Source: an uncultured Solirubrobacterales bacterium (GTDB taxonomy: Bacteria; Actinomycetota; Thermoleophilia; Solirubrobacterales; 70-9). Taken from it: 64,000 nucleotides of DNA. Location: assembly GCA_963706605.1 (NCBI GenBank), contig OY970165.1:2175517-2239516 (forward strand), given 5' to 3'. Under the pieces are notes generated by a model. It was not told where the DNA came from. It made no database searches and worked only from the letters and a program-made list of their open reading frames with translations. Position numbers and translations under genes: made by a program. Shown here piece after piece: positions 5,274-40,241 of this stretch. The stretch's first letter is position 1, and every line of letters begins with the position of its first letter.

Positions 5274-5285
5274 ATAGAGGAGAGA

Positions 5286-5606: not shown

Positions 5607-5616
5607 CCAATGAGCA

Positions 5617-6285: not shown

Positions 6286-6292
6286 CGTGGAG

Positions 6293-6511
6293 TCATATAC
6301 GGCATGCTCGCCCCTCGCTATCGAATGCAACCAAGCGGCAGGCCACCAGCACGCGGACATGGTAGCCAGCGAGCGCCGTCTCCAGGCCAAACGCTCGCGC
6401 CAGGTTATCCAGCGATACCGGCTTCTCCGCGGCAGCGATGCGTTGTTGCAGTGTTGCCCGGATCGGGTGGTGGAGAGCACGGACAAGCGCTCGGGAACCT
6501 CGCAGGCCCAT
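6293..6511 (-). CDS. ArsR-like winged-helix transcriptional regulator
   Basis: 72 aa. LHHPIRATLQQRIAAAEKPVSLDNLARAFGLETALAGYHVRVLVACRLV fits the ArsR/SmtB wHTH pattern. It is divergent from the XRE gene. Confidence 0.5.
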   Translation of the reverse strand: MGLRGSRALVRALHHPIRATLQQRIAAAEKPVSLDNLARAFGLETALAGYHVRVLVACRLVAFDSEGRACRI

Positions 6512-6611
6512 ATCGGGAACTCCCTTCTAGCTCAATCGGAATAGATCGGTCTAGGTACCCTATGACAATCTGGCAGGTTGCGATACGGGAGGCGCGGCGA
6601 ACCTGCGCAAA
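6512..6611. promoter_or_regulatory. Divergent intergenic 'switch' region between the wHTH (-) and XRE (+) regulators
   Basis: 100-bp segment of lower GC between two divergent regulator genes, carrying CTAG-containing repeats (ctagctcaatcggaatagatcggtctag). Promoters are inferred from the geometry only. Confidence 0.3.
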
Positions 6612-6839
6612 GTGCCCGCCCGTTCCGACACCCCTCCCGCTGCTTTCGCTGCCAACGTCGAGCGCATCCGGCAGAAGCGCGGACTCACTCAGGAGCAGCT
6701 GGGGTGGGCGTCGGGCATCCACCAGACGGCCGTCGCTCGGATCGAGAGCGGCGAGCGCAAACCGACGCTCGAAACGGTCTTCAAGCTCGCGCGTGGGCTG
6801 GAGGTTCCTCCCGCCGAGCTGTTTGCCGGGATCGACTGA
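6612..6839 (+). CDS. XRE (Cro/CI) family HTH transcriptional regulator
   Basis: 75 aa. NVERIRQKRGLTQEQLGWASGIHQTAVARIESGERKPTLETVFKLARGLEVPPAELF is a canonical HTH_3 sequence. Confidence 0.8.
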   Translation: MPARSDTPPAAFAANVERIRQKRGLTQEQLGWASGIHQTAVARIESGERKPTLETVFKLARGLEVPPAELFAGID

Positions 6840-7064
6840 GCGCCAAGCGCAGCCAGCCAGCCTTGACGCGCTGCTGCCTGCGGGTGTAGCCTCGCGAGCA
6901 ATAAGCGGGGCCGGCGTGCGGAAACACCCGGCCCCTGGCGCTCGGCTCAGTCAGACCAGGCCGAACGCGAGGGGAAGGGTACCCATGTTGGCGGCCTCGG
7001 AAAAGCGGCCCCCGGCGGCGTTGGCGCGCCAACCGAGGGCCTGACCACCGGGAGGTCTTTCCCA

Positions 7065-7409
7065 ATGGCTAGAAAAAATGATCCAACCAATGGCGGCGGA
7101 ACCATCGCGGCCCTTCGGAAGGCGCTGGGGCTAATGCACGGTTCGGCTGCGCAGCTCTACGACATCGCGGAAGGGCTGGATGGGGAGACGCAGGAGGCGA
7201 TCGAGGTGATCGCCGGGGACCTTGACAGCGGGCAGTCCGGGATCCGCCACAAGCACCTCGCGCAGTTGACGATCCCAGGCGACTACATCGAGGCGTTCCG
7301 CCAAGGGTTGCTGCGCGAACTGAAGTTCAACGGCGACTGGTTGGCAGAGCAAGCCGCCGAGGCCAACGAGGGCCGAGCGCAGGCCGAGCGCGAGGCGGTG
7401 GCTGCCTGA
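7065..7409 (+). CDS. Hypothetical protein (phage early-region style)
   Basis: 114-aa ORF. The stop overlaps the next start (TGATG). Confidence 0.45.
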   Translation: MARKNDPTNGGGTIAALRKALGLMHGSAAQLYDIAEGLDGETQEAIEVIAGDLDSGQSGIRHKHLAQLTIPGDYIEAFRQGLLRELKFNGDWLAEQAAEANEGRAQAEREAVAA

Positions 7410-7831
7410 TGGCGCGCAAGCTGACCGTTGAGCAAGCCGATTTGCTCGCCGAGCACGTCGCATGGAAGTTCGAGGGGGAGACGGAGAGATGCGGGTCTCC
7501 CGAGGCGGTTCTCAAGGCCGCCGAGGTTGTGGCTCCCTTGATCGACCTCATCCGTAGCCTTGTCGAGCGTCGGGAGTTCGACGACAGGGAGCTGGTCGCG
7601 AAGTTTGCGGCCGAGTGGCTAGGCCACACCGGGGCAACCGTGGGTTCCGAAAGCGAAGGCTTGGAGCACATTCGCGAGGGCAACCAGGATTACTTCTTCT
7701 GCGAGGGAGGCCAGGCGGGGAGCGAACAGGCCGCTGAAAGGCAGATCGCGGAATATGTCGCCGAGTCGCGCATGTGGCGAGAAATCCTCGACACGGCGAA
7801 TGGTCGTCGGGCCGAGGCGGTGAGCGCCTGA
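7409..7831 (+). CDS. Hypothetical protein
   Basis: 140-aa acidic ORF. It ends ...AVSA with the TGATG junction. Confidence 0.45.
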   Translation: MARKLTVEQADLLAEHVAWKFEGETERCGSPEAVLKAAEVVAPLIDLIRSLVERREFDDRELVAKFAAEWLGHTGATVGSESEGLEHIREGNQDYFFCEGGQAGSEQAAERQIAEYVAESRMWREILDTANGRRAEAVSA

Positions 7832-8022
7832 TGGAACACCTGACGCCCGAGGAACAGCGAAAGATCAACGTGCTCGCCGTCGCGCTGCGCGAAGTCGAGC
7901 ATGGGTGCCCCGGCCTTTCCTCGCCCTGCCAACGCGCGGTCGAGACCGTCGCCAGGATGATGGCTAGACGTGAGGACCGGCGGGCGCCTGCGTCTCGACC
8001 TCTGAGGGCGGTGAGCGCCTGA
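7831..8022 (+). CDS. Hypothetical small protein
   Basis: Start trimmed to ATG 7831 (MEHLTPEEQRKINVLAVALREVEHG...) within ORF 7774..8022. The junction sequence at its 5' end is identical to the one at its 3' end. Confidence 0.35.
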   Translation: MEHLTPEEQRKINVLAVALREVEHGCPGLSSPCQRAVETVARMMARREDRRAPASRPLRAVSA

Positions 8023-8246
8023 TGGCTATCCAAGTTGTGCCCGCCCCGGCCCCGGTCCCCTCGCCCCCCGAGCAGTCGGATGCACGGCATCGGGTGGAGC
8101 TCGCAGAAGCCCTCGTGGCAATACGACGCGCATCGGTCTCACCGCTTCTGCCGGATCACGCCCAGGCAGTAGTGGGAGCAACGGCATCCCTGCTCGAATT
8201 GTTCGCGCCGAGTTCGGTGTTGACCCTCATAGGGGACGAGAGCTGA
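8022..8246 (+). CDS. Hypothetical small protein
   Basis: 74-aa ORF, translationally coupled on both sides (TGATG). Confidence 0.35.
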   Translation: MAIQVVPAPAPVPSPPEQSDARHRVELAEALVAIRRASVSPLLPDHAQAVVGATASLLELFAPSSVLTLIGDES

Positions 8247-8437
8247 TGGCCCCCCACAAGTCAGAGGAGGGGAAGCTCAAGGAGGTGGCCCGACGCATGG
8301 TGGAGTTTTCCTGCCGCGAGCAAGGGCTGGAGGTGCAGATCACCGATCCGGTCGTCATCGGGAAGGTCGCAGCGATCTTGCGGCCTGATTCAAATGCGCC
8401 ACGTGGGTACCACAAAAGCGGCAAGGGAAGGGGGTAG
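8246..8437 (+). CDS. Hypothetical small protein upstream of integrase (possible excisionase-type position)
   Basis: 63-aa ORF ending 3 nt before the integrase start. No motif recognised. Confidence 0.3.
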   Translation: MAPHKSEEGKLKEVARRMVEFSCREQGLEVQITDPVVIGKVAAILRPDSNAPRGYHKSGKGRG

Positions 8438-8439
8438 CG

Positions 8440-9666
8440 ATGGCCGAGGGAATCCGAAAGCTGCACTCGAAGGGGTGCCCCGCGAAGCAAGGCCAGCGCT
8501 GCCGCTGTAACGCAGGCTACGAGGCGTCGGTCTACTCATCGCGGGAGGGCCGGAAGGTCCGCAAGACCTTCAAGCGGGAAGCCGAGGCGAAGTCCTGGCG
8601 CTCTGAAGCGAAGAGAGCGCTCGATCAGGGCAGCTTGCGTCCGACTGCGCGTGATGGGCGGACGCTGGGCGAGGCGCTGCAGGCATTTGTTGAGGGCATG
8701 CAGACCGGCGCGATCCATCCCAAGGGCCGCGAGCGCTACAAGCCGAACACGATCCGTTCTTATGAGAGGGCGCTGAGGGTCCATATTGCGCCCTCGCAGG
8801 TCGCGCGGATCAAGGTGGGGGAGGTACGGCGCCGGGATCTCAAGGGCCTCGCCGGCGAGCTGCTCGCAGCCGACCTGTCGGCGCGCACCGTCAGCAACGT
8901 CCTTAACCCGATCCAGGCCTTCTACCGCTGGGCGATTGACGCTGACGAGCTGGTCTACAACCCGGCCGAGGGGATTGACCTCCCGACCGGCCAATCGAAG
9001 CGCCCGAAACGCATTGCGACGCCGAAGGAAGCCGCAGCCCTGATCGCTGCGCTTGAGGTAGAGGATCGGCCGCTCTGGGCAACCGCCTTCTATGCTGGCC
9101 TGCGCCGCGGTGAGCTGCAGGCTCTTCGAGCCTGTGACGTCGACCTCGGTGCGAGCCTGATCCACGTCGAGCGCGGTTGGGATCAGGTAGAGGGGGCGAT
9201 CGACCCGAAGTCCACCGCAGGGCGCCGCAGGGTGCCCCTACTGGCCATCCTGCGTGACTATTTGGACGAGCACCTGTTGAGGACTGGCCGGAGCGGGGAA
9301 GACCTCGTATTCGGCCGCACGCCGGAGCACGCCTTCTATGCCTCGACCATCGACGGCCGCGCCAAGCGTGCCTGGGAGGCCGTGAACAAGGCCGAGAGAG
9401 AGGCGGCAGAGCCCGAGGACCGCGAGCCGGAGCTGCTCCACCCGCCACATCTACACCTGTGCCGCCACACGTTCGCCAGTCTGCTGATCGATTCAGGGGC
9501 GAACGCGAAAGCCATTCAGGAGTTCATGGGGCACTCCAAGATCCAGACGACCTATGACGTGTACGGGCACCTGCTCCCCGGCAGTCATGACGAGGTGCGC
9601 GAGCGCATGGACGCTTACTTGCTCGGCAGCGTTGAGGACGCCGAGCAAGCCCGCCAGGCTGCGTAG
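8440..9666 (+). CDS. int: Tyrosine-type site-specific integrase
   Basis: 408 aa. It has a SAM-like core-binding region (IRSYERALRVHIAP...) and a catalytic domain with ...GLRRGELQALR..., LCRHTFASLLIDSGANAKAIQEFMGHSKIQTTYDVYGHLLPG (the R..HxxR..Y signature). Confidence 0.9.
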   Translation: MAEGIRKLHSKGCPAKQGQRCRCNAGYEASVYSSREGRKVRKTFKREAEAKSWRSEAKRALDQGSLRPTARDGRTLGEALQAFVEGMQTGAIHPKGRERYKPNTIRSYERALRVHIAPSQVARIKVGEVRRRDLKGLAGELLAADLSARTVSNVLNPIQAFYRWAIDADELVYNPAEGIDLPTGQSKRPKRIATPKEAAALIAALEVEDRPLWATAFYAGLRRGELQALRACDVDLGASLIHVERGWDQVEGAIDPKSTAGRRRVPLLAILRDYLDEHLLRTGRSGEDLVFGRTPEHAFYASTIDGRAKRAWEAVNKAEREAAEPEDREPELLHPPHLHLCRHTFASLLIDSGANAKAIQEFMGHSKIQTTYDVYGHLLPGSHDEVRERMDAYLLGSVEDAEQARQAA

Positions 9667-9811: not shown

Positions 9812-10136
9812 CTGGGGTTACTACAGGGAGGAGAGATATGTATCTCTATATATGTGGATCCGTGGGAGGTAGGTGAGCCCTTATGTGCCGCGGAGCAAGT
9901 TGATGGGAGTCAACTGCCATATGAGCGGCGCCAGACCCGACCAGGAAGATTTTCGTTCAGCCTTTCATCGGTTTCTCTCGCGAATCCTTGAATCAAGATA
10001 CGAACATACGTGCGATTTGTGTGTGAGGCGAGTCACAGAGGCCCGATTGCCCGCCTCTGGGGCTCTGTTCGGCGATTCTTCTACCCAATTCTAAGGTCTC
10101 GCTAAACATCTGGCAAGGGCTTTCTCGGGCCTCGGG

Positions 10137-20841: not shown

Positions 20842-21854
20842 GCAGGCGCCTTCAGCTGCGGCGCGGTTTCGTCGTCGGCGAGGATCCGCTGACGGTCGAG
20901 GTCGACGGGGAGAGGCGGGCCGCCTGGGCCGACACGGGCCTGCTCGGCGAGATGCTGGAGGGCGACGAGGTGGTGGTCAACGTCGCCGCGCTGGACCTCG
21001 GTCTCGGATCGGGGGGCTTTGACGTCGTCCACGTCAACCTGACCCGTGGGCTTGAGGCGGGGGGGCGCGAGGGCGGGCATGTGATGAAGCTCAACTACAG
21101 CTCCCTCCAGCATGCGGTCGAGCCGGTCGAGCGCTCGTTCGAGGAGACGGGGCGGGGGACGGTGATGCCCGTCTTGGTCCTGCCGCTGCACGGCCACCTG
21201 GCTCCCGCTGTATGGGCAGCGGCTCAGGCAGAGCCCGAAGCAAGGATCGGCTACGTGCAGACGGGGGGTGGAGCCCTACCGGGGTCTATGAGCCGGGATC
21301 TCGCCGAGTTGCGCGAGCGGGGACTGGTCTGCGGTCACGTGACCGCTGCTTCCGCCTACGGCGGCGAGCACGAGGCACTCTCGGTCGCCGGTGCCCTGGA
21401 CGCCGCTGCCGAGAGGCTTGGCTGGGAGGCGGCTGTGGTCGGCCCCGGACCCGGCATCATTGGCTCTGAGACCCGCTTGGGCCACGGTGGACTGGCGGCG
21501 CTCGACAACGCCCACGCCGCGCTGGCACTTGGCCTTCGCACGCTGCTTTCACCCCGCCTCTCCGCCGCCGACCCTCGCGAGCGCCACCGCGGCGTCAGCC
21601 ACCACACTCTGACCGTGATGCAGATGCTGCTAGGCGCGGTCGAGGTCGTCGTGCCCGCGGGCAACCCCGTTGTGACGGCGCAGCTGGCCGAGGCAGCGGC
21701 ATGGCGCCACAAGCTCGAAGAGGCTCCCGCCGATCTCGCCGGCTACGCCGCCTCGGGTCTCCCGGCCCAGACTATGGGCCGCACCCTCGATGACGACCCG
21801 CTGTTCTTCGCAGCTCCGCTGGCCGCGGGCGCCGCCTTGCGGCGCGAGGAATGA
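20838..21854 (+). CDS. DUF3866-like protein
   Basis: Start trimmed to GTG 20838 (GTGA overlap with the M20 gene). VVVNVAALDLGLGSGGFDVVHVNL resembles DUF3866. Family assignment is from memory only. Confidence 0.5.
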   Translation: MSRRLQLRRGFVVGEDPLTVEVDGERRAAWADTGLLGEMLEGDEVVVNVAALDLGLGSGGFDVVHVNLTRGLEAGGREGGHVMKLNYSSLQHAVEPVERSFEETGRGTVMPVLVLPLHGHLAPAVWAAAQAEPEARIGYVQTGGGALPGSMSRDLAELRERGLVCGHVTAASAYGGEHEALSVAGALDAAAERLGWEAAVVGPGPGIIGSETRLGHGGLAALDNAHAALALGLRTLLSPRLSAADPRERHRGVSHHTLTVMQMLLGAVEVVVPAGNPVVTAQLAEAAAWRHKLEEAPADLAGYAASGLPAQTMGRTLDDDPLFFAAPLAAGAALRREE

Positions 21855-21879
21855 GCCGCCCGCGGGAGAACCACCCCGC

Positions 21880-22827
21880 ATGGCAATCGCCGTCGAGCCA
21901 CGACCGGCCACCGATGCCCGTTTCGAGGGCCTGGTCCTCGACTTCCTCTCCTACCTGGAGCTGGAGCGGGGTCTCTCTCGCAACACGCTCAATGCCTACC
22001 GCACCGATCTGCTCCAGTACGGCGGGTTCCTCGGCGAGCACGAAATCGACGCGCTGGCTGCGCGCCCGGCCGACATCGGCGACTTCCTCGCCGATCTGGC
22101 CACGGGCAACGGCCGGCCAGCCTGCTCGGCGGCGACCGTCCACCGCAAGACCGCCTGTTTGCGTTCCTTCTACAAACACCTGCGCCGCGACGAGCTGATC
22201 AGCGACGACCCGACCGCGGCGCTGAGCGCGCCACGACGTGCCAGGAAGCTGCCCCAGGTCCTCAACTACGCCGAGGTGCAGAATCTGCTCGCCGCGCCGC
22301 GCGGTGACGAGCCGACGACGCTGCGCGACAGAGCGCTGCTCGAGGTGATGTACGCGTGTGGATTGCGCGCCTCGGAGACGATCGGGCTCGAGCTCGCCGA
22401 CGTCGACCTGCGTGAGGGTCTGTTGCGGACGCGCGGAAAGGGGTCGAAGGAGCGGATAGTCCCGCTCGGCCGCAAAGCGATCGCCGCAATCTCCGTCTAT
22501 CTGCGCGGGGGCCGGCCGAAGCTGGTCGGCGAACGCCACGAGGCGAGGCTGTTCGTCAACTTCCGCGGCGGTCCGCTCAGTCGCCAGGGGCTCTACAAGA
22601 TCGTCCAGCGCCACGCTCGCAGCGCCGGACTGGCTGGGCAGATGAGCCCCCACACGCTGCGCCACAGCTTCGCCACCCATCTGCTGGCAGGAGGCTGCGA
22701 CCTGCGCGCCGTCCAGGAGATGCTCGGCCACGCCGACATCGCGACGACGCAGATGTACACGCACCTCTCGGGGGAGCGCCTCAAGGAGGTCTATTTCCAG
22801 GCGCACCCAAGGGCCGTCGCCGACTGA
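21880..22827 (+). CDS. xerD: Tyrosine recombinase XerD
   Basis: FLSYLELERGLSRNTLNAYRTDL, RDRALLEVMYACGLRASE, SPHTLRHSFATHLLAGGCDLRAVQEMLGHADIATTQMYTHL. Confidence 0.88.
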   Translation: MAIAVEPRPATDARFEGLVLDFLSYLELERGLSRNTLNAYRTDLLQYGGFLGEHEIDALAARPADIGDFLADLATGNGRPACSAATVHRKTACLRSFYKHLRRDELISDDPTAALSAPRRARKLPQVLNYAEVQNLLAAPRGDEPTTLRDRALLEVMYACGLRASETIGLELADVDLREGLLRTRGKGSKERIVPLGRKAIAAISVYLRGGRPKLVGERHEARLFVNFRGGPLSRQGLYKIVQRHARSAGLAGQMSPHTLRHSFATHLLAGGCDLRAVQEMLGHADIATTQMYTHLSGERLKEVYFQAHPRAVAD

Positions 22828-31578: not shown

Positions 31579-31619
31579 CCGACACCAATCCGCCCGCAGC
31601 ACGCTACCCTCGCCCCCCT

Positions 31620-31693
<74 letters not shown>

Positions 31694-31760
31694 TCCCCAG
31701 TGGGCCGCCTCTCTGCGTCGGCAAAGTAGACTCGCTAAGTACCGAGATGAAGATCGCGGG

Positions 31761-33134
31761 ATGTGGGGGAGATCGATGATGTTCGGGGGAGGCACGGATC
31801 CCTTGCGTACGCATGCACCTCACTCGTGGTTTCTGCGCCTGACCATTGCCGGCTGCTTGGCGGCGGGTTTGGTCGCGCCGCCCGCGGGCGCTGCGCCAGG
31901 CTGGTCGCGCCCGATGAATGTCTCCGGGGTTATGAGCATTGGCGAAGAATCCCCGTCGGTGGATGTGGATTCCAGAGGCAATGCGACCGTCGTGTGGCGG
32001 CGATACCGCGGCGGAAAACTCATCTACGAGAGCGCGGTGCGGCAAGCCGGCGGACCTTGGTCCACTCCATCCCGTTTCTTTGGCGGTTTGGAAGATGCGT
32101 ATGGATTGCAGATCGCCGTCGATCCCCTGGGCAACGAGACGGCCATCTGGGGGCGCCGTGTGGGTCGCTCCTGGGTCGTCCAGAGCGCGACCCGCTCAGT
32201 CGGAGGGAGCTGGTCGGCGCCGGTCACCCTCTCCGCAGCTGGCGCGGGTTCAGCGCTCGTAGCGGCCGGCCCTGAAGGCAACGCGACTGCGGTCTGGCTC
32301 TTGGAACGGGAGGAAGGTTGGCGCTCGGTCGTCCAAAGCGCGACCCGGTCGGCTGGAGGGACCTGGTCGGCACCGGTGACCCTGTCTCCACCGAGAAAGG
32401 CCGCCCAATTTCTCCAAATCGCACTTGACCCCCAGGGCGGCGCAACTGCGGTCTGGAGAGAGGAATACAGCGGTGCAATTGAAAGCTCGACCCGCACATC
32501 CGGAGGGATCTGGTCGGCGCCGGTCGCACTCTCTGCCAATGGAGTAGTTGGCGGTTGGCCCCAGGTGGCTGTGGATTCCCAGGGCAACGCGACGGCGGTC
32601 TGGGCAGGCAGTGCGTCCAATAGCCGTCGGATCCAAACTGCGACCCGCCCGGCCGGTGGGACCTGGTCGGCGCCGGTCAGCATCTCCAAGGCGGGGCACC
32701 GCCACGTACAGGACCCGCAGATCGCGGTCAGCCCCCAGGGCGAGGCGACCGCGATCTGGCAACGTTCCAACGGTAGTTATCTCGTCGTCCAGGGCGCGAC
32801 CCGCCCGGCCGGAGGGGGCTGGTCGAGGCCGGTCGACATCACTACCGGTGACGGACGGGGTGGGCAGCATCTGCGGCTGGTGGTGGATTCCTGGGGCAAC
32901 GCGACCGCGATCTGGGAGGGCTACGACACCCGCCCCGGCCCCAACTTCGCCATCCAGGCGGCGAAGCATCCGCCTGGAGGTGCCTGGTCGCAGCCCGCCG
33001 ATATCTCCCGTTGGACGAAGAGCCTTGGCGAACCGCAGATTGCTGTCGATCCGCAGGGCAGATCAACCGCAATCTGGGTAATCGGCACTAAGGGCGGCGC
33101 GGTCATCCAATCTGCCACCTCGGTCAGGAGGTAG
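31761..33134 (+). CDS. Secreted repeat protein, probable beta-propeller (about eight ~47-aa repeats with GGxWSxPVxLS / GNATAVW motifs)
   Basis: Start trimmed (ATG 31761 or 31776) because ORF 31662..33134 begins inside the tRNA. It has a hydrophobic N-terminal segment (FLRLTIAGCLAAGLVAPPAGAAPG). Repeats include ...VQSATRSAGGTWSAPVTLS...DPQGNATAVW. Confidence 0.6.
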   Translation: MWGRSMMFGGGTDPLRTHAPHSWFLRLTIAGCLAAGLVAPPAGAAPGWSRPMNVSGVMSIGEESPSVDVDSRGNATVVWRRYRGGKLIYESAVRQAGGPWSTPSRFFGGLEDAYGLQIAVDPLGNETAIWGRRVGRSWVVQSATRSVGGSWSAPVTLSAAGAGSALVAAGPEGNATAVWLLEREEGWRSVVQSATRSAGGTWSAPVTLSPPRKAAQFLQIALDPQGGATAVWREEYSGAIESSTRTSGGIWSAPVALSANGVVGGWPQVAVDSQGNATAVWAGSASNSRRIQTATRPAGGTWSAPVSISKAGHRHVQDPQIAVSPQGEATAIWQRSNGSYLVVQGATRPAGGGWSRPVDITTGDGRGGQHLRLVVDSWGNATAIWEGYDTRPGPNFAIQAAKHPPGGAWSQPADISRWTKSLGEPQIAVDPQGRSTAIWVIGTKGGAVIQSATSVRR

Positions 33135-33237
33135 AGCGCACGCTGCTCGCTTCACCCGTCCGGGGTCGGGCCTTGATCACGGTGCGCTGAGCGTATGAAA
33201 TCGCCGAGGCAAATCTGTGGTCTGAAGACACCGGAAC

Positions 33238-33384
33238 TTGGTCCCGAAATTGGTCCCCGACTCCACCGAACTGAGCCGAACTCCTTGGACCTGATTCGCC
33301 ATATCAGGCCAGATTCGGCTCTATGGAAGGTTTCCGGCGCGACTCATAATCCGTGGAGCGCAGGTTCGAGTCCTGCCCGCCCCA
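33238..33384 (+). repeat. Composite repeat copy A (103-bp arm + 44-bp tRNA-Met 3' segment)
   Basis: 33341-33384 is identical by eye to tRNA positions 31650-31693. The arm begins TTGGTCCCGAAATTGGTCCCCGACTCCACCGAACTGAGCCGAACTCC... Confidence 0.9.
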
Positions 33385-33498
33385 TGAAGAAATCCGCTTC
33401 ATCTTGCCAATACGCTGGATTCATGGGGCGCCGGTGCTTGCAGTGGTAATGGTTTGCGGGGTGGCCCGCAAAACCCATTGGAACTCAAAGGGATCTCT

Positions 33499-34599
33499 GT
33501 GATCCGCGGTGTGCTCCGGCTGGGGCTGGCCCTGTCAATCGCGCTTGCCGTCAGCGCGACTTTCTCGGTTGCGGCGGTCCCAGACGGCCCGCGGCTCGCG
33601 ATCATCAGGGCCTTCCCTTACCCCAAGAGTCTGACTGAAATCGCAACCGTCAACGCGGTGGGTGGTGCGCTCCAGACGGTGACGAAGGACGAAGGCCCCC
33701 AGACCGTCGGGATAGTCGGCTCTCACCCGGCCTTCTCGCCCGACGGCAGCCTTATTGCCTTCGCCGGCTCCGCCGTCGAGGCAGGCGGAGAAGTAAGCCC
33801 AGTGGTTTCGGTGGTCGGTGCGGACGGGACCGGGTTGCGGACGCTGAGGGGCACCTTTCCAACCGAAGCGGAGCCCATCTTCGCACCGGACGGCCACACG
33901 ATTGCCTTCGCCACCCTGAAGGTCGTCAACGGTCCTCTCGAGCGGCTCGGGAGGGCTCTGAGCAGAAATGGAGCTTACGTCCTCCTGGGAATCCGGTCGG
34001 TGGATATCGAAGATGGCTCCCAGCGAATGGTGACCCCCTGGCGCCCATGGGGCCAGGGCGCTGTCCTGTACCCGTCCTCCTACTCGCCCGACGGATCGAC
34101 CCTGGCCGTCACCGCTTGGCCTTTCAACGACTCCCCGAGGGCGAGGGCCGTCGCCGTTCGTCTCGACGGCAGCGGTTCGACCCTGCTCGCCAAAAATGCA
34201 GAGGAGCCGGTCTATTCACCCGATGGGTCGCGGATCGCCTTCGTTCGAGTGCATACCCATGTCAAACATCTTCCGGACCGCCGCAAGCGCACGATCATTC
34301 GCAAAGATCTCTACGTCATGCGCGTGGACGGCTCGGGCCTCGCCCGACTCACCCGCAGTCCCCGCCTGCTTGAGGAGTGGCCGAGTTGGGACCCATCGGG
34401 CAAGAGGATCGCCTTCAACAGCTATCGGCCGGGACCCGGACTCCTCCGTCTGCCAACCGACACGTCCGTAATGCAGGTCAACGCCGACGGGACCTGCCTG
34501 ACGAAGGTGCTGGCTTCTCGTTTTCGCGAGAGCCTCGGCGGTGCCGCCTGGCAGCCGGGCCCGGGCCGTGGGGCAGGCCCGATTGAGTGCGGCGGATAA
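33499..34599 (+). CDS. Secreted PD40/TolB-like WD40 beta-propeller repeat protein
   Basis: Signal-like N-terminus VIRGVLRLGLALSIALAVSATFSVAAV (GTG 33499 preferred over TTG 33454). Repeats FSPDGSLIAFAG, FAPDGHTIAFAT, YSPDGSTLAVTA, YSPDGSRIAFVR, WDPSGKRIAFNS. Confidence 0.7.
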   Translation: MIRGVLRLGLALSIALAVSATFSVAAVPDGPRLAIIRAFPYPKSLTEIATVNAVGGALQTVTKDEGPQTVGIVGSHPAFSPDGSLIAFAGSAVEAGGEVSPVVSVVGADGTGLRTLRGTFPTEAEPIFAPDGHTIAFATLKVVNGPLERLGRALSRNGAYVLLGIRSVDIEDGSQRMVTPWRPWGQGAVLYPSSYSPDGSTLAVTAWPFNDSPRARAVAVRLDGSGSTLLAKNAEEPVYSPDGSRIAFVRVHTHVKHLPDRRKRTIIRKDLYVMRVDGSGLARLTRSPRLLEEWPSWDPSGKRIAFNSYRPGPGLLRLPTDTSVMQVNADGTCLTKVLASRFRESLGGAAWQPGPGRGAGPIECGG

Positions 34600-34641
34600 C
34601 CGCGACGCCACCAGCTGCCCCAAGCTTTTTCTCGCGGAAAT

Positions 34642-34788
34642 TTGGTCCCGAAATTGGTCCCCGACTCCACCAAACTCAGCCGAACTCCTTGGACGTAATT
34701 CGCTCTAACGAGCCAGATTCGGCTCTATAGACGGGTTCCGGCGCGACTCATAATCCGTGGAGCGCAGGTTCGAGTCCTGCCCGCCCCA
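34642..34788 (+). repeat. Composite repeat copy B
   Basis: The arm differs from copy A at 12 of 103 positions (by-eye alignment). The 44-bp tRNA segment 34745-34788 is identical to the tRNA. Confidence 0.9.
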
Positions 34789-34809
34789 TACGACGAGGAA
34801 GAAGGGCAC

Positions 34810-35025
34810 TCAGGCGGTGATGATCTCGTGACCGTCGGGGAAGAAAATTGCGACTGGCCGATGCTCCGCCACTGCTTCGGCGAGGATCGAGCTGAAGCCC
34901 TCCTGGTCGGCGGCGATAAAAATGGTTCCCTCGGGATAGCGATCAGGATCGAGCACGGCTTCGATCAGTCGCTCGTTTGCGACTTCTCCGGCCCGAGTGA
35001 ATTTGCTGCGCTGTAGCTCTTCCAT
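34810..35025 (-). CDS. Small hypothetical protein, paralogue of the N-terminal part of 35453..35806
   Basis: 71 aa. DPDRYPEGTIFIAADQEG...HRPVAIFFPDGHEIIT aligns with MAARYPNRAHFISADNPHQGE...GDPVVIVYLDGHELLV of the neighbouring gene. Confidence 0.4.
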   Translation of the reverse strand: MEELQRSKFTRAGEVANERLIEAVLDPDRYPEGTIFIAADQEGFSSILAEAVAEHRPVAIFFPDGHEIITA

Positions 35026-35138
35026 GATCCCGCGATTTGTTTCCAGTGGTTGATCAACAATGGCGTGCTTCTCATCACCTTTGATGGTAGAGGGCTCATT
35101 GCCCCATTTCGCGCCGGAGGTTTTGAAAGCCTCTGTCT

Positions 35139-35456
35139 GTGGTCCCGAAAGAGCGAGAGATTTTCATCGACGTGGAGCCGGACATCCGAATCCGGTACCG
35201 CCGCAGCGAGCCTCCGCCGCCGGTGTCCTACGCGATTGTGCTGGAGAGCCTCGAGGACGGCGAGTGGACGACCGTGCGGCTTTGGGACAACGCCGATGTA
35301 GTCGACGAGCACCACGAGCACGAGTACACGCGGGCTGGCGGAAAGCAGGCGCCGGACATTCTGTATTTCAGCTCCTCCAACGAGGCGATGGCGGCGGCAA
35401 TCAGGAAAGCCAAGACGGGGGCTCCGGCGATCGTGAGACAATGGCGAGAGTCATGA
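35139..35456 (+). CDS. Small His-rich protein, possibly DUF6516/TumE-like toxin-type fold (unverified)
   Basis: 105 aa with a GTG start. SYAIVLESLEDGEWTTVRLWDNADVVDEHHEHEYTRAGGKQAPDILYF resembles, from memory, the ...RYDN....H.H... motif of that family. ATGA overlap with the next gene. Confidence 0.4.
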   Translation: MVPKEREIFIDVEPDIRIRYRRSEPPPPVSYAIVLESLEDGEWTTVRLWDNADVVDEHHEHEYTRAGGKQAPDILYFSSSNEAMAAAIRKAKTGAPAIVRQWRES

Positions 35457-35806
35457 GTCACGACGCCGACATCGATCCCGCAACTGAGAGGGTCCTCGCT
35501 GGTATCGAAGATGAAGACATGGCCGCTCGCTACCCCAATCGAGCGCACTTCATCTCGGCCGACAATCCCCATCAAGGGGAGATGGCGACCCGTGCGTTGT
35601 TCGACGGCGATCCCGTCGTGATCGTCTACCTCGACGGACACGAGCTGCTCGTCCAGCCTGAGCAGGCACATGGCTTCGCACGATGGTCGCGCGCTGCTGC
35701 GGCGCTCCTGCTTCGCTTCAAGCGCCTCGACCAGGGCACTTTGCAGCTTCCCCCTCGCGCTCATATCGAGGCCCGCGACTCGGGCGGCCATCCAATCGCG
35801 GCGTAG
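35453..35806 (+). CDS. Hypothetical protein (second gene of the two-gene operon)
   Basis: 117 aa from ATG 35453 inside ORF 35060..35806. Translationally coupled to 35139..35456. Confidence 0.4.
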   Translation: MSHDADIDPATERVLAGIEDEDMAARYPNRAHFISADNPHQGEMATRALFDGDPVVIVYLDGHELLVQPEQAHGFARWSRAAAALLLRFKRLDQGTLQLPPRAHIEARDSGGHPIAA

Positions 35807-35822
35807 TCCGTCGAATAGGCCT

Positions 35823-35863
35823 TAACGGGCCAGATTCGGCTCTCTGGACGGTTCCGGCGCGAC
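35823..35863 (+). repeat. Truncated arm-only repeat copy C
   Basis: TTAACGGGCCAGATTCGGCTCTCTGGACGGTTCCGGCGCGAC matches the last ~40 nt of the arm. It stops within 3 nt (GAC) of the start of the 44-nt tRNA-derived core, whose next bases would be TCATAAT. Confidence 0.75.
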
Positions 35864-35891
35864 GGGGATCAACCCCAGCGGCTGGAATGAA

Positions 35892-36648
35892 TTACCGTCG
35901 GGCTTCGAGCCAGTCGGCCGCTCGATGAAGCAGGGCTGGAATGCCTCGCGTCGACGTCTGCGGCTCCTGCCGAACAACGTGCAGTCGCGTGGGGTGAATT
36001 CCGCGCTGGGTGAGGAGCAGGGTCAGCGACTTGCCCCACAGGCGCCCGAAGCGTCGAAGCGTTTCTTCGATCAGCGCGGAACGCCTTTCAAGCGCCTGTT
36101 CGCCTGCCGGCTCGTTGGGGTCGCCGAAAACCGCCCTCGTGAGCGCCGCCTCCGGGAACTCGATGACCATTTTTTCGTCGCCCTGGAAGAGCCCGATCTG
36201 CGCGACTTCCTCGCCAGCGTCTTCGAGGGTCTTGCGCAGCTCGTCGTCGTCCACTGAGGCAAGGTGGATCGTCCGCTGTCGCTCGACGTAAAAGAGTTTT
36301 TCGACTGGCGTTTTCTCCCTGCTGCCGAGCTTCTTTGTGAGCATTTCTACGAGCCAGTCAGCATCTTCCGTAGCCCCGGCCTCCGCGACGAAGTGTCGAA
36401 TCTCCCTCGTAATCACGGATCGCTGCGATGGCGCGCCACGAGTCCACGAGCCGGGCGGCAAGGTGTCGCTGTAGGTACAGGCTGTGCGCGACGGAGGTGT
36501 CCTCGCCGAACAGGTTGGCCTTAAAGCGGCTCTCCATGTTCCCCAGATCGGCAACCGTCTCTGAAAGCAGGAAAACAAAGCGGTCGATCCGGTTGTCGGG
36601 GTCGAACACGTCGCGCAGTTTGAGGCCGCCGTCGGGAGACGTAGGCAT
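35892..36648 (-). pseudogene. Frameshifted gene of unknown function
   Basis: An N-terminal ~70 aa in ORF 36358..36648 (MPTSPDGGLKLRDVFDPDNRIDRFVFLLSETVADLGNMESRF...) continues in the other frame in ORF 35892..36578 (...VITREIRHFVAEAGATEDADWLVEMLTKKLGS...). The frame switch lies near 36420-36440. Confidence 0.5.
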
Positions 36649-36692
36649 GGGGGAAGGCTAACGGTCGTTGAAGGAGATACTTAAGGCTTTTT

Positions 36693-36839
36693 TTGGTCCC
36701 GAAATTGGTCCCCGACTCCACCGAACTCAGCCGAACTCCTTGGACGTGATTGGCTCTATCAGGCCAGATTCGACTCTATGAACGGGTTCCGGCTCGACTC
36801 ATAATCCGTCGGTCGAAGGTTCGAGTCCTTCCCGCCCCA
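36693..36839 (+). repeat. Composite repeat copy D (variant tRNA segment)
   Basis: The arm is conserved. The 44-nt segment 36796-36839 differs from the resident tRNA at 5 positions, including a compensatory T-stem pair (GAAGG/CCTTC versus GCAGG/CCTGC). Confidence 0.9.
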
Positions 36840-36866
36840 TAGCCTGCTGACACTTCGTCTTCGCGG

Positions 36867-38408
36867 TCAACCGTTTCCGGTCCACCAGTTCCGTAGGCGC
36901 TCGATGTGGTTCCGGAACTTCGTATAGGTGGCTCTAATAGCCATCGCTAGGAGTCCGAAGAATCCAACGTCGACCAAGACTGCGCCCAGGGTGCTTTGGT
37001 GATTCCCGCCGGTGGTTTCCTGACCGAACGCCGTGGTGACTATCGTTCCTGCGAGGAGGAGCAGCACGCACCCGATGACCACGGATCGGGTCGGAATGCG
37101 GGCGAGAGCTCGACTCAGGATGCGGGCCAGGGTGCGGGGCATGTCCGCCTTGAACGCAAACCACCATTCCTGCCACGGTCGTGGAAGCCATGGTTGGTAG
37201 GTCGGAGTGATGCCGGCGTCAAGGCTCGACAGAGGTTTCAGCTCCTCGACATATGGTTCTTCCGGCTCGGCTGGCAACGGCGCTGGAGTAGGGGCATCGC
37301 TGATCACGTCGAAAAGGTGTGCGTCCCTTCCGCGTAGAAATAGGACCGGGGTACCGAACTCGATGTCATTGCCGGCGGCGAAAATGGAGCGGCGGGCTTG
37401 GGCAAGGGCAGCATCAACTGGGAAGTCCCGTGCCAAGGCGTCGTAGAGCCTTCCAGCAAATGCGATCGCCGCCTCGTCCGTGATCTCGAATTGCATGCCT
37501 ATGACCGCTGGCACGCCGTAGTGAGCGAGACTTGCGGCTGCACCCGAAAAGGGGTCGACGTGCGAACTCCGGGCCCCTTCGCATGAGTTGAGCACGGCGA
37601 GCCTTAGGCTGCGCTCGTCCTGGAGAAGCAGGCCTAGTTCCTCGCCCGAGACTTCGTGGGGATCTCCGCGCTCGTTCTCGAGGATCAGGATCCCGCTTTG
37701 GTCACGAGTGTCATAGCTGCCATGACCAACGAAATGGAAGACGTGAATCTCGTCGTGTTGGTTGATGGCCTCGTCCAACCCCTTGAGGGTTCCCCTATCC
37801 AGCCATTCCAGGGTCACCAGCCCTTCACCGCACAAAGGCCCCAGCGCCGCGGTCAGCTTTGCCTTCTCCTTCTCGACGTCCAGCGTGGCGAAGCCGTTGG
37901 GAGAGCTGATCAACCCGAGCACATTCAAAGGGAGGCTGAGGGGATACGCGGCGGGAACGTCGCGGAGGTCGAGCGAGCGAGCCACCGGGCTGTATATAGA
38001 CTGGGAGAGGAAGCGAGGCTTCTCGTAGAGATACTCCCAGGGAAGGTCCATCAGCTTCGGGGCATCGGAGAGGCACAAGGTAAGCCGAAGGCCCTTTCGA
38101 GAGCTCTCAGCCGCTCCGCGTGCCGAGCGGAATATGTCTCGAATTTCCCCTACCATCAAAGCCTCGAAGAGGCGCTCGCCAAACCGGCGAGCCTCCTCCA
38201 TCGGTGTTGAGCGGTAATTCCGCAAGGGAAGGCGCTGCCTGCCGACTCGCAGCACGAAGTTGTCTAGCTCGAGCTCCGTAAAGGGAACTTCAAAGGCTGC
38301 CGAGGCGGTCGAGTCGTCAGCTGCCGTGGCAACAATCCGGTAGCAATTGCTACCGGTCGGGTGGAACCGGATTCTCAGCTCGTCGTAGGGAAGCGCTTCC
38401 TCTGCCAT
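36867..38408 (-). CDS. CHAT-domain (caspase-like) protease with C-terminal two-TM tail
   Basis: 513 aa. The His/Cys dyad context is IHVFHFVGHGSYD and LAVLNSCEGARSS. The C-terminus carries VVIGCVLLLLAGTIVTTAF and LGAVLVDVGFFGLLAMAI hydrophobic helices. Confidence 0.8.
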   Translation of the reverse strand: MAEEALPYDELRIRFHPTGSNCYRIVATAADDSTASAAFEVPFTELELDNFVLRVGRQRLPLRNYRSTPMEEARRFGERLFEALMVGEIRDIFRSARGAAESSRKGLRLTLCLSDAPKLMDLPWEYLYEKPRFLSQSIYSPVARSLDLRDVPAAYPLSLPLNVLGLISSPNGFATLDVEKEKAKLTAALGPLCGEGLVTLEWLDRGTLKGLDEAINQHDEIHVFHFVGHGSYDTRDQSGILILENERGDPHEVSGEELGLLLQDERSLRLAVLNSCEGARSSHVDPFSGAAASLAHYGVPAVIGMQFEITDEAAIAFAGRLYDALARDFPVDAALAQARRSIFAAGNDIEFGTPVLFLRGRDAHLFDVISDAPTPAPLPAEPEEPYVEELKPLSSLDAGITPTYQPWLPRPWQEWWFAFKADMPRTLARILSRALARIPTRSVVIGCVLLLLAGTIVTTAFGQETTGGNHQSTLGAVLVDVGFFGLLAMAIRATYTKFRNHIERLRNWWTGNG

Positions 38409-38449
38409 CTGGCTTAGGGTACACGTCTCGTGTAGTATCGTGATGAGAA
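38409..38449. promoter_or_regulatory. Divergent promoter/operator region between CHAT gene and RHH-ParE operon
   Basis: Inverted repeat TACACG-TCT-CGTGTA (38420-38434) overlaps a TAGTAT -10-like hexamer (38433-38438) lying 12 nt before the antitoxin ATG. This geometry is typical of an RHH autoregulated operator. Confidence 0.45.
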
Positions 38450-38713
38450 ATGGCTGCCACTGCTAGACGAATCAACGTCACGCTTGACGAGGAGCACGCA
38501 GGTAAGCTCGCGAAGCTGGCGGAGCGGACGCATGTTCAGGAGGGGACCCTTGCCCGCTCGCTTCTTTCGACGGCTCTTGACGATGCCGATCCGGATGCGG
38601 CTCGCATTACTGAAGTCTTGAATGGGATCCCCGGCGCCTGGGAGCGGACCCAGGAGGGACTTGCTCAGGCGGCCCGTGGTGAAGGAACGCCACTCGACGA
38701 GCTGGCATCTTGA
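38450..38713 (+). CDS. Ribbon-helix-helix (CopG-type) antitoxin
   Basis: 87 aa. RRINVTLDEEHAGKLAKLAERTHVQEGTLARSLLSTAL is a typical RHH N-terminus. It lies directly upstream of the ParE-like gene. Confidence 0.7.
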   Translation: MAATARRINVTLDEEHAGKLAKLAERTHVQEGTLARSLLSTALDDADPDAARITEVLNGIPGAWERTQEGLAQAARGEGTPLDELAS

Positions 38714-39007
38714 GTGGCGCAGATCATCGTCACCCCGCAGGCGCGGCGGGACATTGAAGACGCGACCGCGGCCCTTAGTCTCCATGGCGATATCTGGACT
38801 CGTGTCGCGCGCTCGCTAAGAGTTCTCGAAACCTTTCCTTTAGCGGGTCCCGAGCTGGATGGTAGGTGGACGCCGGTTCGATTCATCATTGGTCCGTGGC
38901 CCTGGATGATCTTGCTCTACCGCTACGAAGAGCCGTCGGATCGAGTCTTCGTCGTCGCGATGCACGACGCGCGGTCGGCGACTTCGGCCACGGCGAGTCG
39001 GCCTTGA
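38714..39007 (+). CDS. parE: ParE/RelE-superfamily toxin
   Basis: 97 aa with a GTG start immediately after the antitoxin stop. IIVTPQARRDIEDA...FPLAGPELDG...RFIIGPWPWMILLYRYEEPSDRVFVVAMHDAR matches the ParE pattern. Confidence 0.7.
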   Translation: MAQIIVTPQARRDIEDATAALSLHGDIWTRVARSLRVLETFPLAGPELDGRWTPVRFIIGPWPWMILLYRYEEPSDRVFVVAMHDARSATSATASRP

Positions 39008-39011
39008 AGAC

Positions 39012-39140
39012 TTGGTCCGAAATTTGGTCCCCGACTCCACCGAACTCCTGGATGTAATTCGCTCTATCTGGCGAGACTCGGCTCTATAGAAGGCTCCCGG
39101 CTCGACTCATAGTCCGTTGAATGTTCGAGTCCTTCCCCGC
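39012..39140 (+). repeat. Composite repeat copy E (degenerate; terminal copy of the array)
   Basis: The arm is recognisable but one CCGAACT unit is deleted. The tRNA-derived part GACTCATAGTCCGTTGAATGTTCGAGTCCTTCCCCGC is decayed. Confidence 0.8.
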
Positions 39141-39178
39141 TTTTATGGAAGAGGCCTCGGCTCTCTATCGTTGGGGGC

Positions 39179-39508
39179 ATGCCTGAAGCTCCTGAACTCG
39201 ACGAGTTCGAGTCCTTGGTCGTTGACGCAATCGATCGGCTGCCGGCTGAATTCCAAGAGGTATTGGCGAACGTCGCGGTTGTGGTATCCGATCTCGGAGA
39301 CGAGGTACATGCATATGGTCAGTACTTCGGAGACGGTGTCGCGCGCGAAAGCTATGAGGACCGGATCGTCATCTACCGTGACACTCTGGAGCGTGACTTC
39401 GGCCATGACCGTGACCTGCTTGCCCGCCAGGTCGAGCGGACTTTGCGTCACGAGCTTGCCCACCACCTCGGCTGGGGTGAGCAAGGAACGGGAGGCCTGG
39501 GCCTATGA
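39179..39508 (+). CDS. Zinicin-like small metallopeptidase-family protein (DUF1025-type)
   Basis: 109 aa with HELAHHLG (HExxH) near the C-terminus and LPAEFQEVLANVAVVV near the N-terminus. Confidence 0.65.
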   Translation: MPEAPELDEFESLVVDAIDRLPAEFQEVLANVAVVVSDLGDEVHAYGQYFGDGVARESYEDRIVIYRDTLERDFGHDRDLLARQVERTLRHELAHHLGWGEQGTGGLGL

Positions 39509-39613
39509 CTGAGACAAAACGCCTCCCAACCAACCGGGACCGGTAGATCGACTGGTCCCCCGTTCACCGATGGACTAAGGTCGTCGAGCGCAGTTTTCGC
39601 TGCGCCCCAACAA

Positions 39614-40111
39614 TTGAGAGGCGGTCCCTTGGATCCTGTCGGATATGAGCTGTGTACTCCCGAAGGCGACAAGGGCGGTGGCGTTCGTGCAACTCGTCGC
39701 TTCCAGGTCGGCGAAACGGTGATGGTTGGAGTGCTCGAGGGCGAGGTCGCCTGCAACGACTCGCACGCGACTCAGGTGAGTCGCACCAAGTGGGCCCGGC
39801 ACGGTGGCCTCGGCCCCCTGGTCAACCACTCGTGCAGTCCGAACTGCGGTGTTCACGTGAACGACACCGGCGCCTGCGATTTTGTGGCCCGGAGGTCGAT
39901 CTCCAACCATGAGGAGATCACTTTCGACTATGCGATGCGCAACTATTCGATCGAGCACTTTCCAGGTGGCTGTCTCTGCGGAGCGGATATTTGCCGCGGT
40001 TCGGTGACCGGCTGGAAGGATCTCCCTACCGAGCGCAAGGTCGCCTACGAGGGCCTGGTTGCGCCCTACCTGCTCGAGATTGATCGCGAGCTGGCTGGCT
40101 CAGTCGCCTGA
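39614..40111 (+). CDS. SET-domain protein (putative lysine methyltransferase)
   Basis: NHSCSPNC, EEITFDY, and post-SET CLCGADICRG motifs. The TTG start is uncertain. Confidence 0.75.
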   Translation: MRGGPLDPVGYELCTPEGDKGGGVRATRRFQVGETVMVGVLEGEVACNDSHATQVSRTKWARHGGLGPLVNHSCSPNCGVHVNDTGACDFVARRSISNHEEITFDYAMRNYSIEHFPGGCLCGADICRGSVTGWKDLPTERKVAYEGLVAPYLLEIDRELAGSVA

Positions 40112-40241
40112 CGCGCCGAGTGGGACGAGTCGGGGGTGGCAAGCTTGGCCCCGACACCAATCATCGACTCTCGCCAGCCACTTAAGCTCAGGCCCGAGCG
40201 CCACATCTTCCGCTCGCCGCTAGGCTTAAAACGCTTCATCC

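Follow-up and report, generated by a model that had tools for sequence, protein, structure and literature searches.

A CHAT protease with a two-helix membrane tail

The 64,000-nucleotide stretch analyzed here (the window; contig OY970165.1 of an uncultured Solirubrobacterales bacterium) carries on its minus strand, at 36867..38408, an intact gene for a 513-amino-acid protein that joins a CHAT (caspase-like) protease module to a disordered linker and a tail of two transmembrane (TM) helices, an architecture termed CHAT-2TM below. Across a divergent spacer of 41 bp (38409..38449) lies a plus-strand toxin-antitoxin (TA) pair, consisting of a probable ribbon-helix-helix (RHH) antitoxin (87 aa, 38450..38713) and a putative RelE/ParE-superfamily toxin (97 aa, 38714..39007), and all three genes sit between two repeats of an array anchored at a tRNA-Met gene. 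Judged from sequence comparisons, the 513-aa protein is the protease and fused-region half of a described class of defense modules, the Pepco-protease modules, with the pore-forming half missing from the locus.

By profile, conserved dyad and caspase-like fold, the protein is a CHAT protease, with catalysis predicted. Pfam CHAT (PF12770) matches residues 75-344 (E=2.6e-28; 99.7 bits against a cut-off of 24), and the motifs HFVGHG (H225 and H229) and LNSCEG (C276) place the catalytic dyad at His229 (codon 37722-37724) and Cys276 (codon 37581-37583, both on the minus strand). All three residues are invariant in an alignment of 22 full-length homologues; across 96 sequences, H225 and H229 remain invariant and C276 is kept in at least 90%. 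The AlphaFold2 (AF2) model built on the 96-sequence alignment (mean predicted local distance difference test, pLDDT, of 82) consists of three N-terminal strands plus helices (residues 8-102) followed by a caspase-like alpha/beta core (106-368). Foldseek matched this model with probability 1.0 to Csx29/TPR-CHAT, SAVED-CHAT, DdvA and separase, as well as to gingipain and MALT1, and the SAVED-CHAT structure 8TL0 was the sole significant sequence match in the Protein Data Bank (PDB). An earlier note on this DNA had recognized the CHAT protease and its dyad correctly, and had set apart an N-terminal domain of ~110 aa and unknown type; the latter division falls away, as the CHAT match already begins at residue 75 and residues 1-110, which hold many invariant positions, belong to a constant module of ~370 aa (residues 1-368; 37305..38408, minus strand) delimited by the Pfam match, the AF2 model, the Foldseek matches and the invariant columns.

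Evolutionarily, the gene bears the marks of purifying selection, with a ratio of non-synonymous to synonymous rates (dN/dS) of 0.14-0.16 against four relatives. The window-specific branch carries 43 synonymous and 11 non-synonymous changes, similar to the branch of the related locus L005 (33:7). Most likely, then, the gene encodes an active, selectively maintained Cys/His protease, its activity being a prediction. Its GC content (0.60-0.66) is below that of its flanks (0.69-0.72) in most loci examined.

A protease family linked to Pepco

The module belongs to a very large family found in actinobacteria and Chloroflexi. A word-indexed search with the CHAT protein returned 1560 relatives, and an exhaustive HMMER search of 1.84 billion cluster representatives returned 20141 at E<1e-3 and 5536 at E<1e-30. 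Nearly all of these targets match at their N-terminus, over query residues ~1-370, and the C-termini beyond vary and are mostly membrane-spanning, with one TM helix and Kelch repeats, TPR repeats and TM helices, or multi-TM regions, next to soluble forms with WD40/PD40 propellers. More distant members with differing C-termini show 55-64% identity over the module. The named sources of close relatives are metagenome-assembled genomes of Solirubrobacterales and Thermoleophilia, and those of the wider family include Microbacteriaceae, Actinoplanes, Gaiellales and Chloroflexi.

In a 2-TM homologue of 54% identity (locus L087), a 109-aa gene overlapping the CHAT start codon is annotated as Trypco1 (PF19493), and tblastn, a custom HMM and Pfam scans over ~90 family loci showed that 24-25 of them, roughly a quarter, have a same-strand Trypco1 gene (~107-120 aa) directly against the start of CHAT and in translational coupling with it. 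The distance from the Trypco1 stop codon to the CHAT start codon is -8 to +17 nt, and all ten of the ten candidates tested matched PF19493 (E=1e-20 to 1e-27). The names Trypco1 and Trypco2 come from Kaur et al. 2020 (eLife, PMC7159879), who gave them to genes found together with peptidases in conflict systems; the name Pepco was put in their place by Evans et al. 2025 (bioRxiv 10.1101/2025.11.14.688446). In the Streptomyces Pepco-Avs4 pair described in the latter study, Pepco is a stable beta-barrel whose C-terminal tail is cut by the linked protease, which turns it into a membrane-permeabilizing toxin, and the region fused to the protease in such modules acts as the sensor (bioRxiv 10.1101/2025.11.14.688446). 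The L087 Trypco1-CHAT-2TM operon (7675-9620 of that locus) also lies beside Tad-pilus genes, as does the CHAT-2TM gene of another 2-TM member, P0054; no Trypco1 was called upstream of P0054, where an adjacent 283-aa gene gave no Pfam match.

The window protein is close to these linked proteases, with 54-63% identity over ~370 aa between its CHAT module and those of CHAT proteases directly downstream of Trypco1. In a neighbor-joining tree built on the CHAT module, Trypco1-linked members turn up throughout, and the 2-TM proteins form a monophyletic clade whose sister is a mostly Trypco1-linked clade with one TM helix after the CHAT module, in some cases with Kelch repeats. Two Trypco1-linked loci, L009 and L087, fall inside the 2-TM clade itself, and a TM helix, or more than one, follows the CHAT module in 22 of the 23 Trypco1-linked proteins. 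The Trypco1 HMM found nothing in the 64-kb window (best E=1.6) and nothing in the loci of the window's sub-clade; in the window, the gene upstream of the CHAT gene is the divergent RHH gene rather than Trypco1, and there is no co-oriented upstream gene. Since linked members occur across the tree and also within the 2-TM clade, the linkage is most simply read as ancestral, with the Pepco gene lost in the sub-clade to which the window belongs. The earlier note's judgment that the architecture matches no known system therefore needs revision, because the protease family forms Trypco1/Pepco-protease operons.

The linker and the membrane tail

The Pro/Glu-rich linker and the two C-terminal hydrophobic helices that the earlier note described are both present. 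The linker (residues 369-405; 37194..37304, minus strand), delimited by pLDDT, alignment and conservation profile, falls below a pLDDT of 50 over residues 373-400 of the AF2 model, and its sequence varies among homologues without conservation. The tail (residues 406-513; 36870..37193, minus strand) runs from a juxtamembrane motif, WLPRPWQEWW, through TM1 (37026-37082), a loop and TM2 (36936-36992) to a terminal motif, RLRNWWTGNG. The two TM helices were placed at residues 443-461 and 473-491 (Kyte-Doolittle peaks of 2.47 and 2.09), and the AF2 model has C-terminal helices at residues 410-436, 440-461 and 473-510. Five arginines precede TM1 and five lysines or arginines lie in the last 22 residues, and the 11-aa exo-loop between the helices (GQETTGGNHQS) is free of both; this charge pattern indicates an N-in/C-in hairpin with the protease domain in the cytoplasm.

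Both TM helices are kept in the ~60 closest homologue clusters (52-91% identity). Within 37 sequences, WLPRPWQEWW, Gly and Glu positions in and around the loop, and RLRNWWTGNG are conserved at 0.9 or above, and 36 clusters of the Pepco-less sub-clade that includes the window carry both motifs. The two motifs are confined to this sub-clade, usually found directly downstream of a tRNA-Met gene, and are missing from a second Pepco-less 2-TM group (L007/L084 and L090). Residues 406-513 matched no Pfam family and no PDB sequence. A homology search with the tail by itself returned one fragment; it did not recover the known homologues either, so this search was insensitive. The possibility that the tail is a fused or derived Pepco was considered and ruled out by an hhalign probability of 0.2% and by the lack of PDB or Pfam relatives.

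An independent toxin-antitoxin pair and a derived spacer

The toxin start codon follows immediately on the antitoxin stop codon. The antitoxin was assigned from its position, the adjacent operator-like palindrome and profile matches below threshold (RHH_1, E=0.012 and 16 bits against 20.5; RelB-like antitoxin, E=0.026), and the toxin likewise gave a sub-threshold match to ParE_toxin (E=0.059; 14.4 bits against 23). The same profile matches 10 of 26 toxin homologues (best E=0.0078), and many of the 478 clusters of toxin homologues, a family far commoner than CHAT-2TM, are called ParE (JGI) or RelE/ParE (NCBI). The AF2 model of the toxin is of low confidence (pLDDT 49) and has the topology beta-alpha-alpha-beta-beta-beta; its top Foldseek matches, weak ones from this low-confidence model, are HP0892, RelE, HigB, ParE and BrnT (E=0.02-1.3), and profile searches of the TA proteins against the PDB gave no sequence match. 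Of the earlier note's CopG-type antitoxin and ParE-type toxin, the coupled gene pair and its operator-like palindrome stand; the profile matches stay under curated thresholds, and the RHH and ParE assignments are plausible.

The distribution of the pair shows how loosely it is tied to the protease. It is kept as a unit in seven loci (L001, L005, L019, L091, L092, L095 and L098). The first five hold the full CHAT, RHH and toxin unit within the same ~150-nt repeats (81-90% protein identity), and in L095 and L098 the pair stands with its repeat at the tRNA-Met hotspot without a CHAT gene. Conversely, six loci (L002, L006, L008, L085, L088 and L089) have a CHAT-2TM gene of 55-79% identity beside the same tRNA-Met without the TA genes. 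Because each is found without the other at the same site, the TA pair is best described from these comparisons as an independent, self-regulated cassette that travels with the CHAT gene only in close relatives, and a functional CHAT-TA unit, as the earlier note's shared control region would imply, is not supported. For annotation, the lesson is that a functional unit cannot be concluded merely from an adjacent TA pair with a shared spacer.

Within the spacer, the palindrome TACACG-TCT-CGTGTA (38420-38434) is the probable operator of the TA module. TACACG-N3-CGTGTA adjoins the RHH start codon in five diverged TA-bearing relatives, with the spacer bases varying, and this conservation, which sets the palindrome beyond chance, identifies it as a predicted RHH operator. 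In the same five relatives the CHAT-RHH intergenic region is ~115 bp long and holds the element CGATCCgAAGTAGGTTTCcAAG ~10 nt before the CHAT ATG. This upstream element, conserved for CHAT as AAGTAGGTTTC, is also present in the TA-less loci L002, L006 and L086, and therefore belongs to the CHAT gene. The window alone has undergone a ~75-bp deletion that removed the element and joined ...CGTGTACCCT to AAGCCAGATG. The shared 41-bp control region of the earlier note is thus real, palindrome included, but alignment with the relatives' upstream regions makes it a derived feature, peculiar to the window. A TACCCT (TAnnnT) box, read by eye, overlaps an arm of the operator and ends 7 nt before the CHAT ATG, a spacing that suits a leaderless actinobacterial transcript, and from this overlap the CHAT gene of the window may have fallen under antitoxin control. 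A scan for sigma-70 promoters and terminators found nothing, as expected for an actinobacterium. In L002, which has no TA genes, a palindrome GACACG-N5-CGTGTC upstream of CHAT (~9885-9910) aligns with the position of the TA operator; it may be left over from a TA module since lost, or may matter to CHAT itself.

A tRNA-Met cassette array

The genomic setting, perhaps a less usual feature than the CHAT gene, is an array that spans 31619-40241. It begins at an intact tRNA-Met(CAT) gene called by ARAGORN (31619..31696, plus strand), an attB-like anchor, followed by approximately six units of 1-2.3 kb, each of which ends in an arm and a copy of the 3' part of the tRNA. The repeat to the left of the CHAT cassette (36690..36840, plus strand) consists of a ~105-nt arm with tandem TTGGTCCC motifs and a 45-nt copy, 89% identical, of the tRNA-Met 3' part, and the one to its right (39010..39137, plus strand) of the arm and a degenerate copy of the tRNA-Met 3' core. 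Further repeats lie at 33235-33385 and 34639-34789, with a degenerate copy near 35814. The arm motif occurs solely at the four array repeats, and the arm is not homologous to the tRNA-Met gene's own upstream region. The array region is GC-poor (0.60-0.63 versus ~0.70), and no integrase was found within it. It resembles an integron or, as an intact tRNA gene followed by integrase-less units with copies of the tRNA 3' end, cis-mobilizable element (CIME) or tycheposon-satellite arrays. The earlier note's picture of a small mobile island with a TA module is borne out to this extent, with the cassette lying in a mobile-looking, tRNA-anchored array.

Comparison among relatives shows the site to be a hotspot. 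The tRNA-Asn...tRNA-Met interval recurs in seven loci (L002, L005, L006, L008, L088, L089 and L091) and in more than 17 metagenome loci, with relatives holding different sets and orders of cassettes; the CHAT/TA unit is fifth in the window, first in L005 and second in L091. The chromosomal side is syntenic across relatives (Hpt, a 360-aa protein, SDR, GT28, tRNA-Asn, DnaG, RecO and Fpg). A scan of metagenome flanks yielded 17 loci with at least 2.3 kb past the same tRNA-Met, several of them bearing arrays of the same repeats and none of the 17 a CHAT gene, and CHAT-2TM is therefore an accessory gene of the hotspot.

The cassette under study holds the CHAT, RHH and toxin genes only, and the others encode a secreted repeat protein, a PD40 propeller, small unknown proteins, and Zincin_1 and SET proteins. 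Cassette 1 has an open reading frame (ORF; 31662-33134, plus strand) for a secreted protein of ~51-aa repeats (153-nt period, motif ...D.QGNATAVW...) without a Pfam match. The product of cassette 2 (33454-34599, plus strand) is a PD40/TolB-like beta-propeller that starts with a signal or TM segment, and a PD40 cassette also occurs in the L091 array, there distal to CHAT. The small ORFs of cassette 3 (34810-35025, minus strand; 35500-35806, plus strand) have an apparent common C-terminal motif (...FISAD/FIAAD...V(A/V)I(F/V)...DGHE(I/L)...), which suggests a paralogous pair. Cassette 6 encodes Zincin_1 metallopeptidase-like and SET-domain proteins (39179-39508 and 39614-40111, plus strand), and several relatives (L001, L095 and L098) also have the Zincin_1 gene next after the TA cassette. 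Elsewhere in the window, a XerC/D-like tyrosine recombinase (21790-22827, plus strand; Phage_integrase, E=4e-47) lies beside Fpg, ~9 kb from the array, with a recombinase in the same position in L091, and a GC-poor prophage end (346-9666) carries genes for a capsid protein (346-1878), a minor-tail/tape-measure-like protein (2553-5273) and a tyrosine integrase (8440-9666).

Proposed function and alternative explanations

Functionally, we favor, with a probability of about one half, a membrane-resident, signal-activated CHAT protease that descends from Pepco-protease defense modules, uses its hairpin as anchor or sensor, and has lost the gene of its cognate pro-toxin. In this scheme the hairpin, with its short exo-loop and Trp-rich juxtamembrane segments, would hold the protease at the membrane and would report an event at the membrane or envelope, for instance an attack by phage. 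Activation would follow, probably by clustering, and the dyad would then cleave a target, which might be a Pepco-type protein from elsewhere in the genome, some protein of the cell or the phage, or the protease's own disordered linker. The defense function, the sensing role of the tail and antitoxin control of the CHAT gene are what we infer from family membership, architecture and the spacer. An anchor or sensor is favored over an effector as the role of the hairpin because L009 and L087 have a homologous hairpin together with a separate Pepco, because TM regions are usual in the family, and because the tail is unrelated to Pepco. The membrane-anchored sensor protease that the earlier note had offered as its second option is accordingly the one we retain.

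Several observations weigh against this reading. No effector was found in cis, which leaves the defense logic incomplete for the window gene, and Pepco activation has been demonstrated for a serine-protease partner only (SsAvs4), not for a CHAT partner (bioRxiv 10.1101/2025.11.14.688446). The tree behind the ancestral linkage is a rough neighbor-joining tree, and the TM calls come from a simple hydropathy scan. PADLOC matches of the CHAT protein itself are at the level of domains, and PADLOC run on 147 neighboring ORFs of 12 homologous loci returned generic matches only (DnaG, dGTPase, kinases), together with a few mad2/mad6 matches not assigned to particular loci; the neighbors in these loci are mostly housekeeping genes, and the defense-island neighborhood that the earlier note had envisaged did not emerge from them. 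Viral contigs held no relatives of the CHAT protein, and plasmids held distant CHAT proteins only (<40% identity). Finally, the synteny of the sub-clade at a single site, across identities of 55-90%, could also be compatible with a housekeeping gene specific to the lineage.

Such a role takes its most concrete form in a HetF-like housekeeping or developmental membrane protease that would process envelope or division proteins and have no part in conflict, an explanation we regard as unlikely. HetF (NF045509) is the best NCBIfam match of the window protein (E=8e-21), at 74 bits far under the equivalog cut-off of 1200. HetF itself is built of an N-terminal CHAT domain, one TM helix and TPR repeats, is membrane-localized and interacts with FtsI (PMC8406250). 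The family contains TPR-plus-TM relatives, and in two 2-TM members, P0054 and the Pepco-linked L087, the CHAT locus adjoins the dcw cluster (MraZ-RsmH-FtsI-MurE/F), which, with the housekeeping neighbors and the synteny, speaks for this explanation. Set against it, the gene is missing from 17 loci that share the hotspot, has an atypically low GC content, resides at varying positions in a cassette array with att-like repeats, and belongs to a family linked to a pore-forming pro-toxin.

A somewhat more doubtful explanation, and the one the earlier note had put first, is that the protein is a single-polypeptide abortive-infection effector in which the Trp-rich 2-TM tail became the membrane-disrupting part after the loss of Pepco. 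Cleavage by the CHAT dyad, in cis or in trans, would fall in the linker or at the bond RLRNWW|TGNG, and the hairpins, once freed or clustered, would permeabilize the membrane. The strong conservation of WLPRPWQEWW and RLRNWWTGNG and their limitation to the Pepco-less tRNA-Met sub-clade would fit such a mechanism, as would a disordered linker between protease and membrane, the precedent of DdvA, for which trans-autoproteolysis of the CHAT-TM linker has been proposed (PMC11506125), and a neighborhood that encodes no other substrate. On the other hand, the tail of L009 and L087, which coexists there with a separate Pepco, indicates that the hairpin is older than the Pepco loss and was not an effector then; TM-bearing C-termini are widespread in the whole family, with the hairpin in the sensor position; the second Pepco-less 2-TM group lacks both motifs; the tail resembles neither Pepco nor any Pfam or PDB entry; and the unconserved linker offers no evident fixed cleavage site. 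The sub-clade-specific motifs would nevertheless allow for a role newly taken on once Pepco was gone. Slightly less probable again is the fuller version of this idea, in which protease and membrane-active part merged in the Pepco-less tRNA-Met sub-clade, with self-cutting at the linker or at RLRNWW-TGNG letting the hairpin permeabilize the membrane, and in which the 75-bp deletion wired the window's copy to the TA operator. If it were true, the merged protease-hairpin would be a minimal, single-gene, caspase-triggered cell-death switch.

Least probable by a clear step is an orphaned remnant that has lost both Pepco and its own promoter and persists as a silent passenger held by the addictive TA cassette, for although Pepco is absent from the window, the ~75-bp deletion took the conserved upstream element and the TA module is adjacent, the ORF is intact and under purifying selection with a branch like that of L005, dyad and tail motifs have stayed intact across the 55-91% identity of the Pepco-less clade, and a TAnnnT box remains at leaderless spacing.

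The signal-activated, membrane-resident protease thus remains our preferred reading, and it would give the locus some wider interest. The 11-residue exo-loop would be a simple model for how a membrane signal activates a caspase-like enzyme. The target of the orphan protease would tell whether it works by itself, as do Borvo and the caspase-like protease of type IV Thoeris, or via effectors encoded elsewhere.

Comparison with known systems

Gasdermin, CRISPR, SAVED and EACC1 partners were all considered and none is present at the locus, in agreement with the earlier note as regards the first two. Among solved structures, the best matches are Csx29 (the TPR-CHAT protein of Craspase) and SAVED-CHAT (PDB 7ZOQ and 8TL0), which share the CHAT fold and dyad with the window protein. 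Unlike them, the window protein has neither TPR repeats nor a SAVED domain, and no CRISPR, CBASS, Csx30 or PCaspase substrate genes lie nearby; the PADLOC SAVED_CHAT match covers the CHAT core only (profile positions 126-252 of 498). DdvA, a Myxococcus anti-sigma factor (PDB 8ROT; Foldseek E=3.5e-10), is likewise a membrane-tethered CHAT protein on a long flexible linker, but its CHAT domain is periplasmic, C-terminal after TPR repeats and incomplete in its active site, and it has a cytoplasmic anti-sigma domain and an extracytoplasmic function (ECF) sigma partner. Borvo resembles the locus in being a solo CHAT gene without an obligatory partner, and differs in that the CHAT domain of BovA is C-terminal and without a 2-TM tail. 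An identity with Borvo was rejected, as the PADLOC BovA match spans 118 of 711 profile positions (549-666; E=1.5e-6).

In HetF of Anabaena, a divisome-associated protein, a cytoplasmic CHAT domain at the N-terminus likewise precedes a membrane anchor. HetF, the product of a core gene of development and division, is 836 aa long and has one TM helix and TPR repeats, in contrast to the 513-aa, TPR-less product of an accessory cassette gene described here. The two-gene EACC1-caspase system offers a parallel in design: an N-terminal caspase-superfamily protease with variable C-termini, prevalent in actinobacteria and acting at the membrane. EACC1-linked caspases carry more than 50 alternative C-terminal regions, one third of them with TM helices (Kaur et al. 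2020, PMC7159879; Evans et al. 2025). Their caspase belongs to a different subfamily, and an EACC1-type caspase was rejected for the window protein, with a non-significant match to caspase_w_EACC1 (E=0.053) and no EACC1 gene upstream.

The closest comparison is with the Pepco-protease modules themselves, which share with the locus a homologous N-terminal protease, a variable region in the sensor position, and their occurrence in Actinobacteria and relatives. In the window the fused region is a 2-TM hairpin with an 11-residue loop, located where relatives carry Kelch, WD40, TPR or multi-TM regions; there is no Pepco gene in the 64 kb, and the characterized partner of Pepco is the trypsin-like Avs4 rather than a CHAT protease. 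The architecture is therefore already represented in a described module class, and what is new is an orphan, minimal member without the pore-forming partner. Few of the protease-effector pairs proposed for prokaryotic immunity are as abundant as the Pepco-protease modules, of which a serine-protease example alone has been studied experimentally. The locus described here points to a large set of CHAT-type, mostly membrane-spanning Pepco partners, and within it to a well-conserved sub-clade that keeps protease and anchor and has dropped the pore-forming effector.

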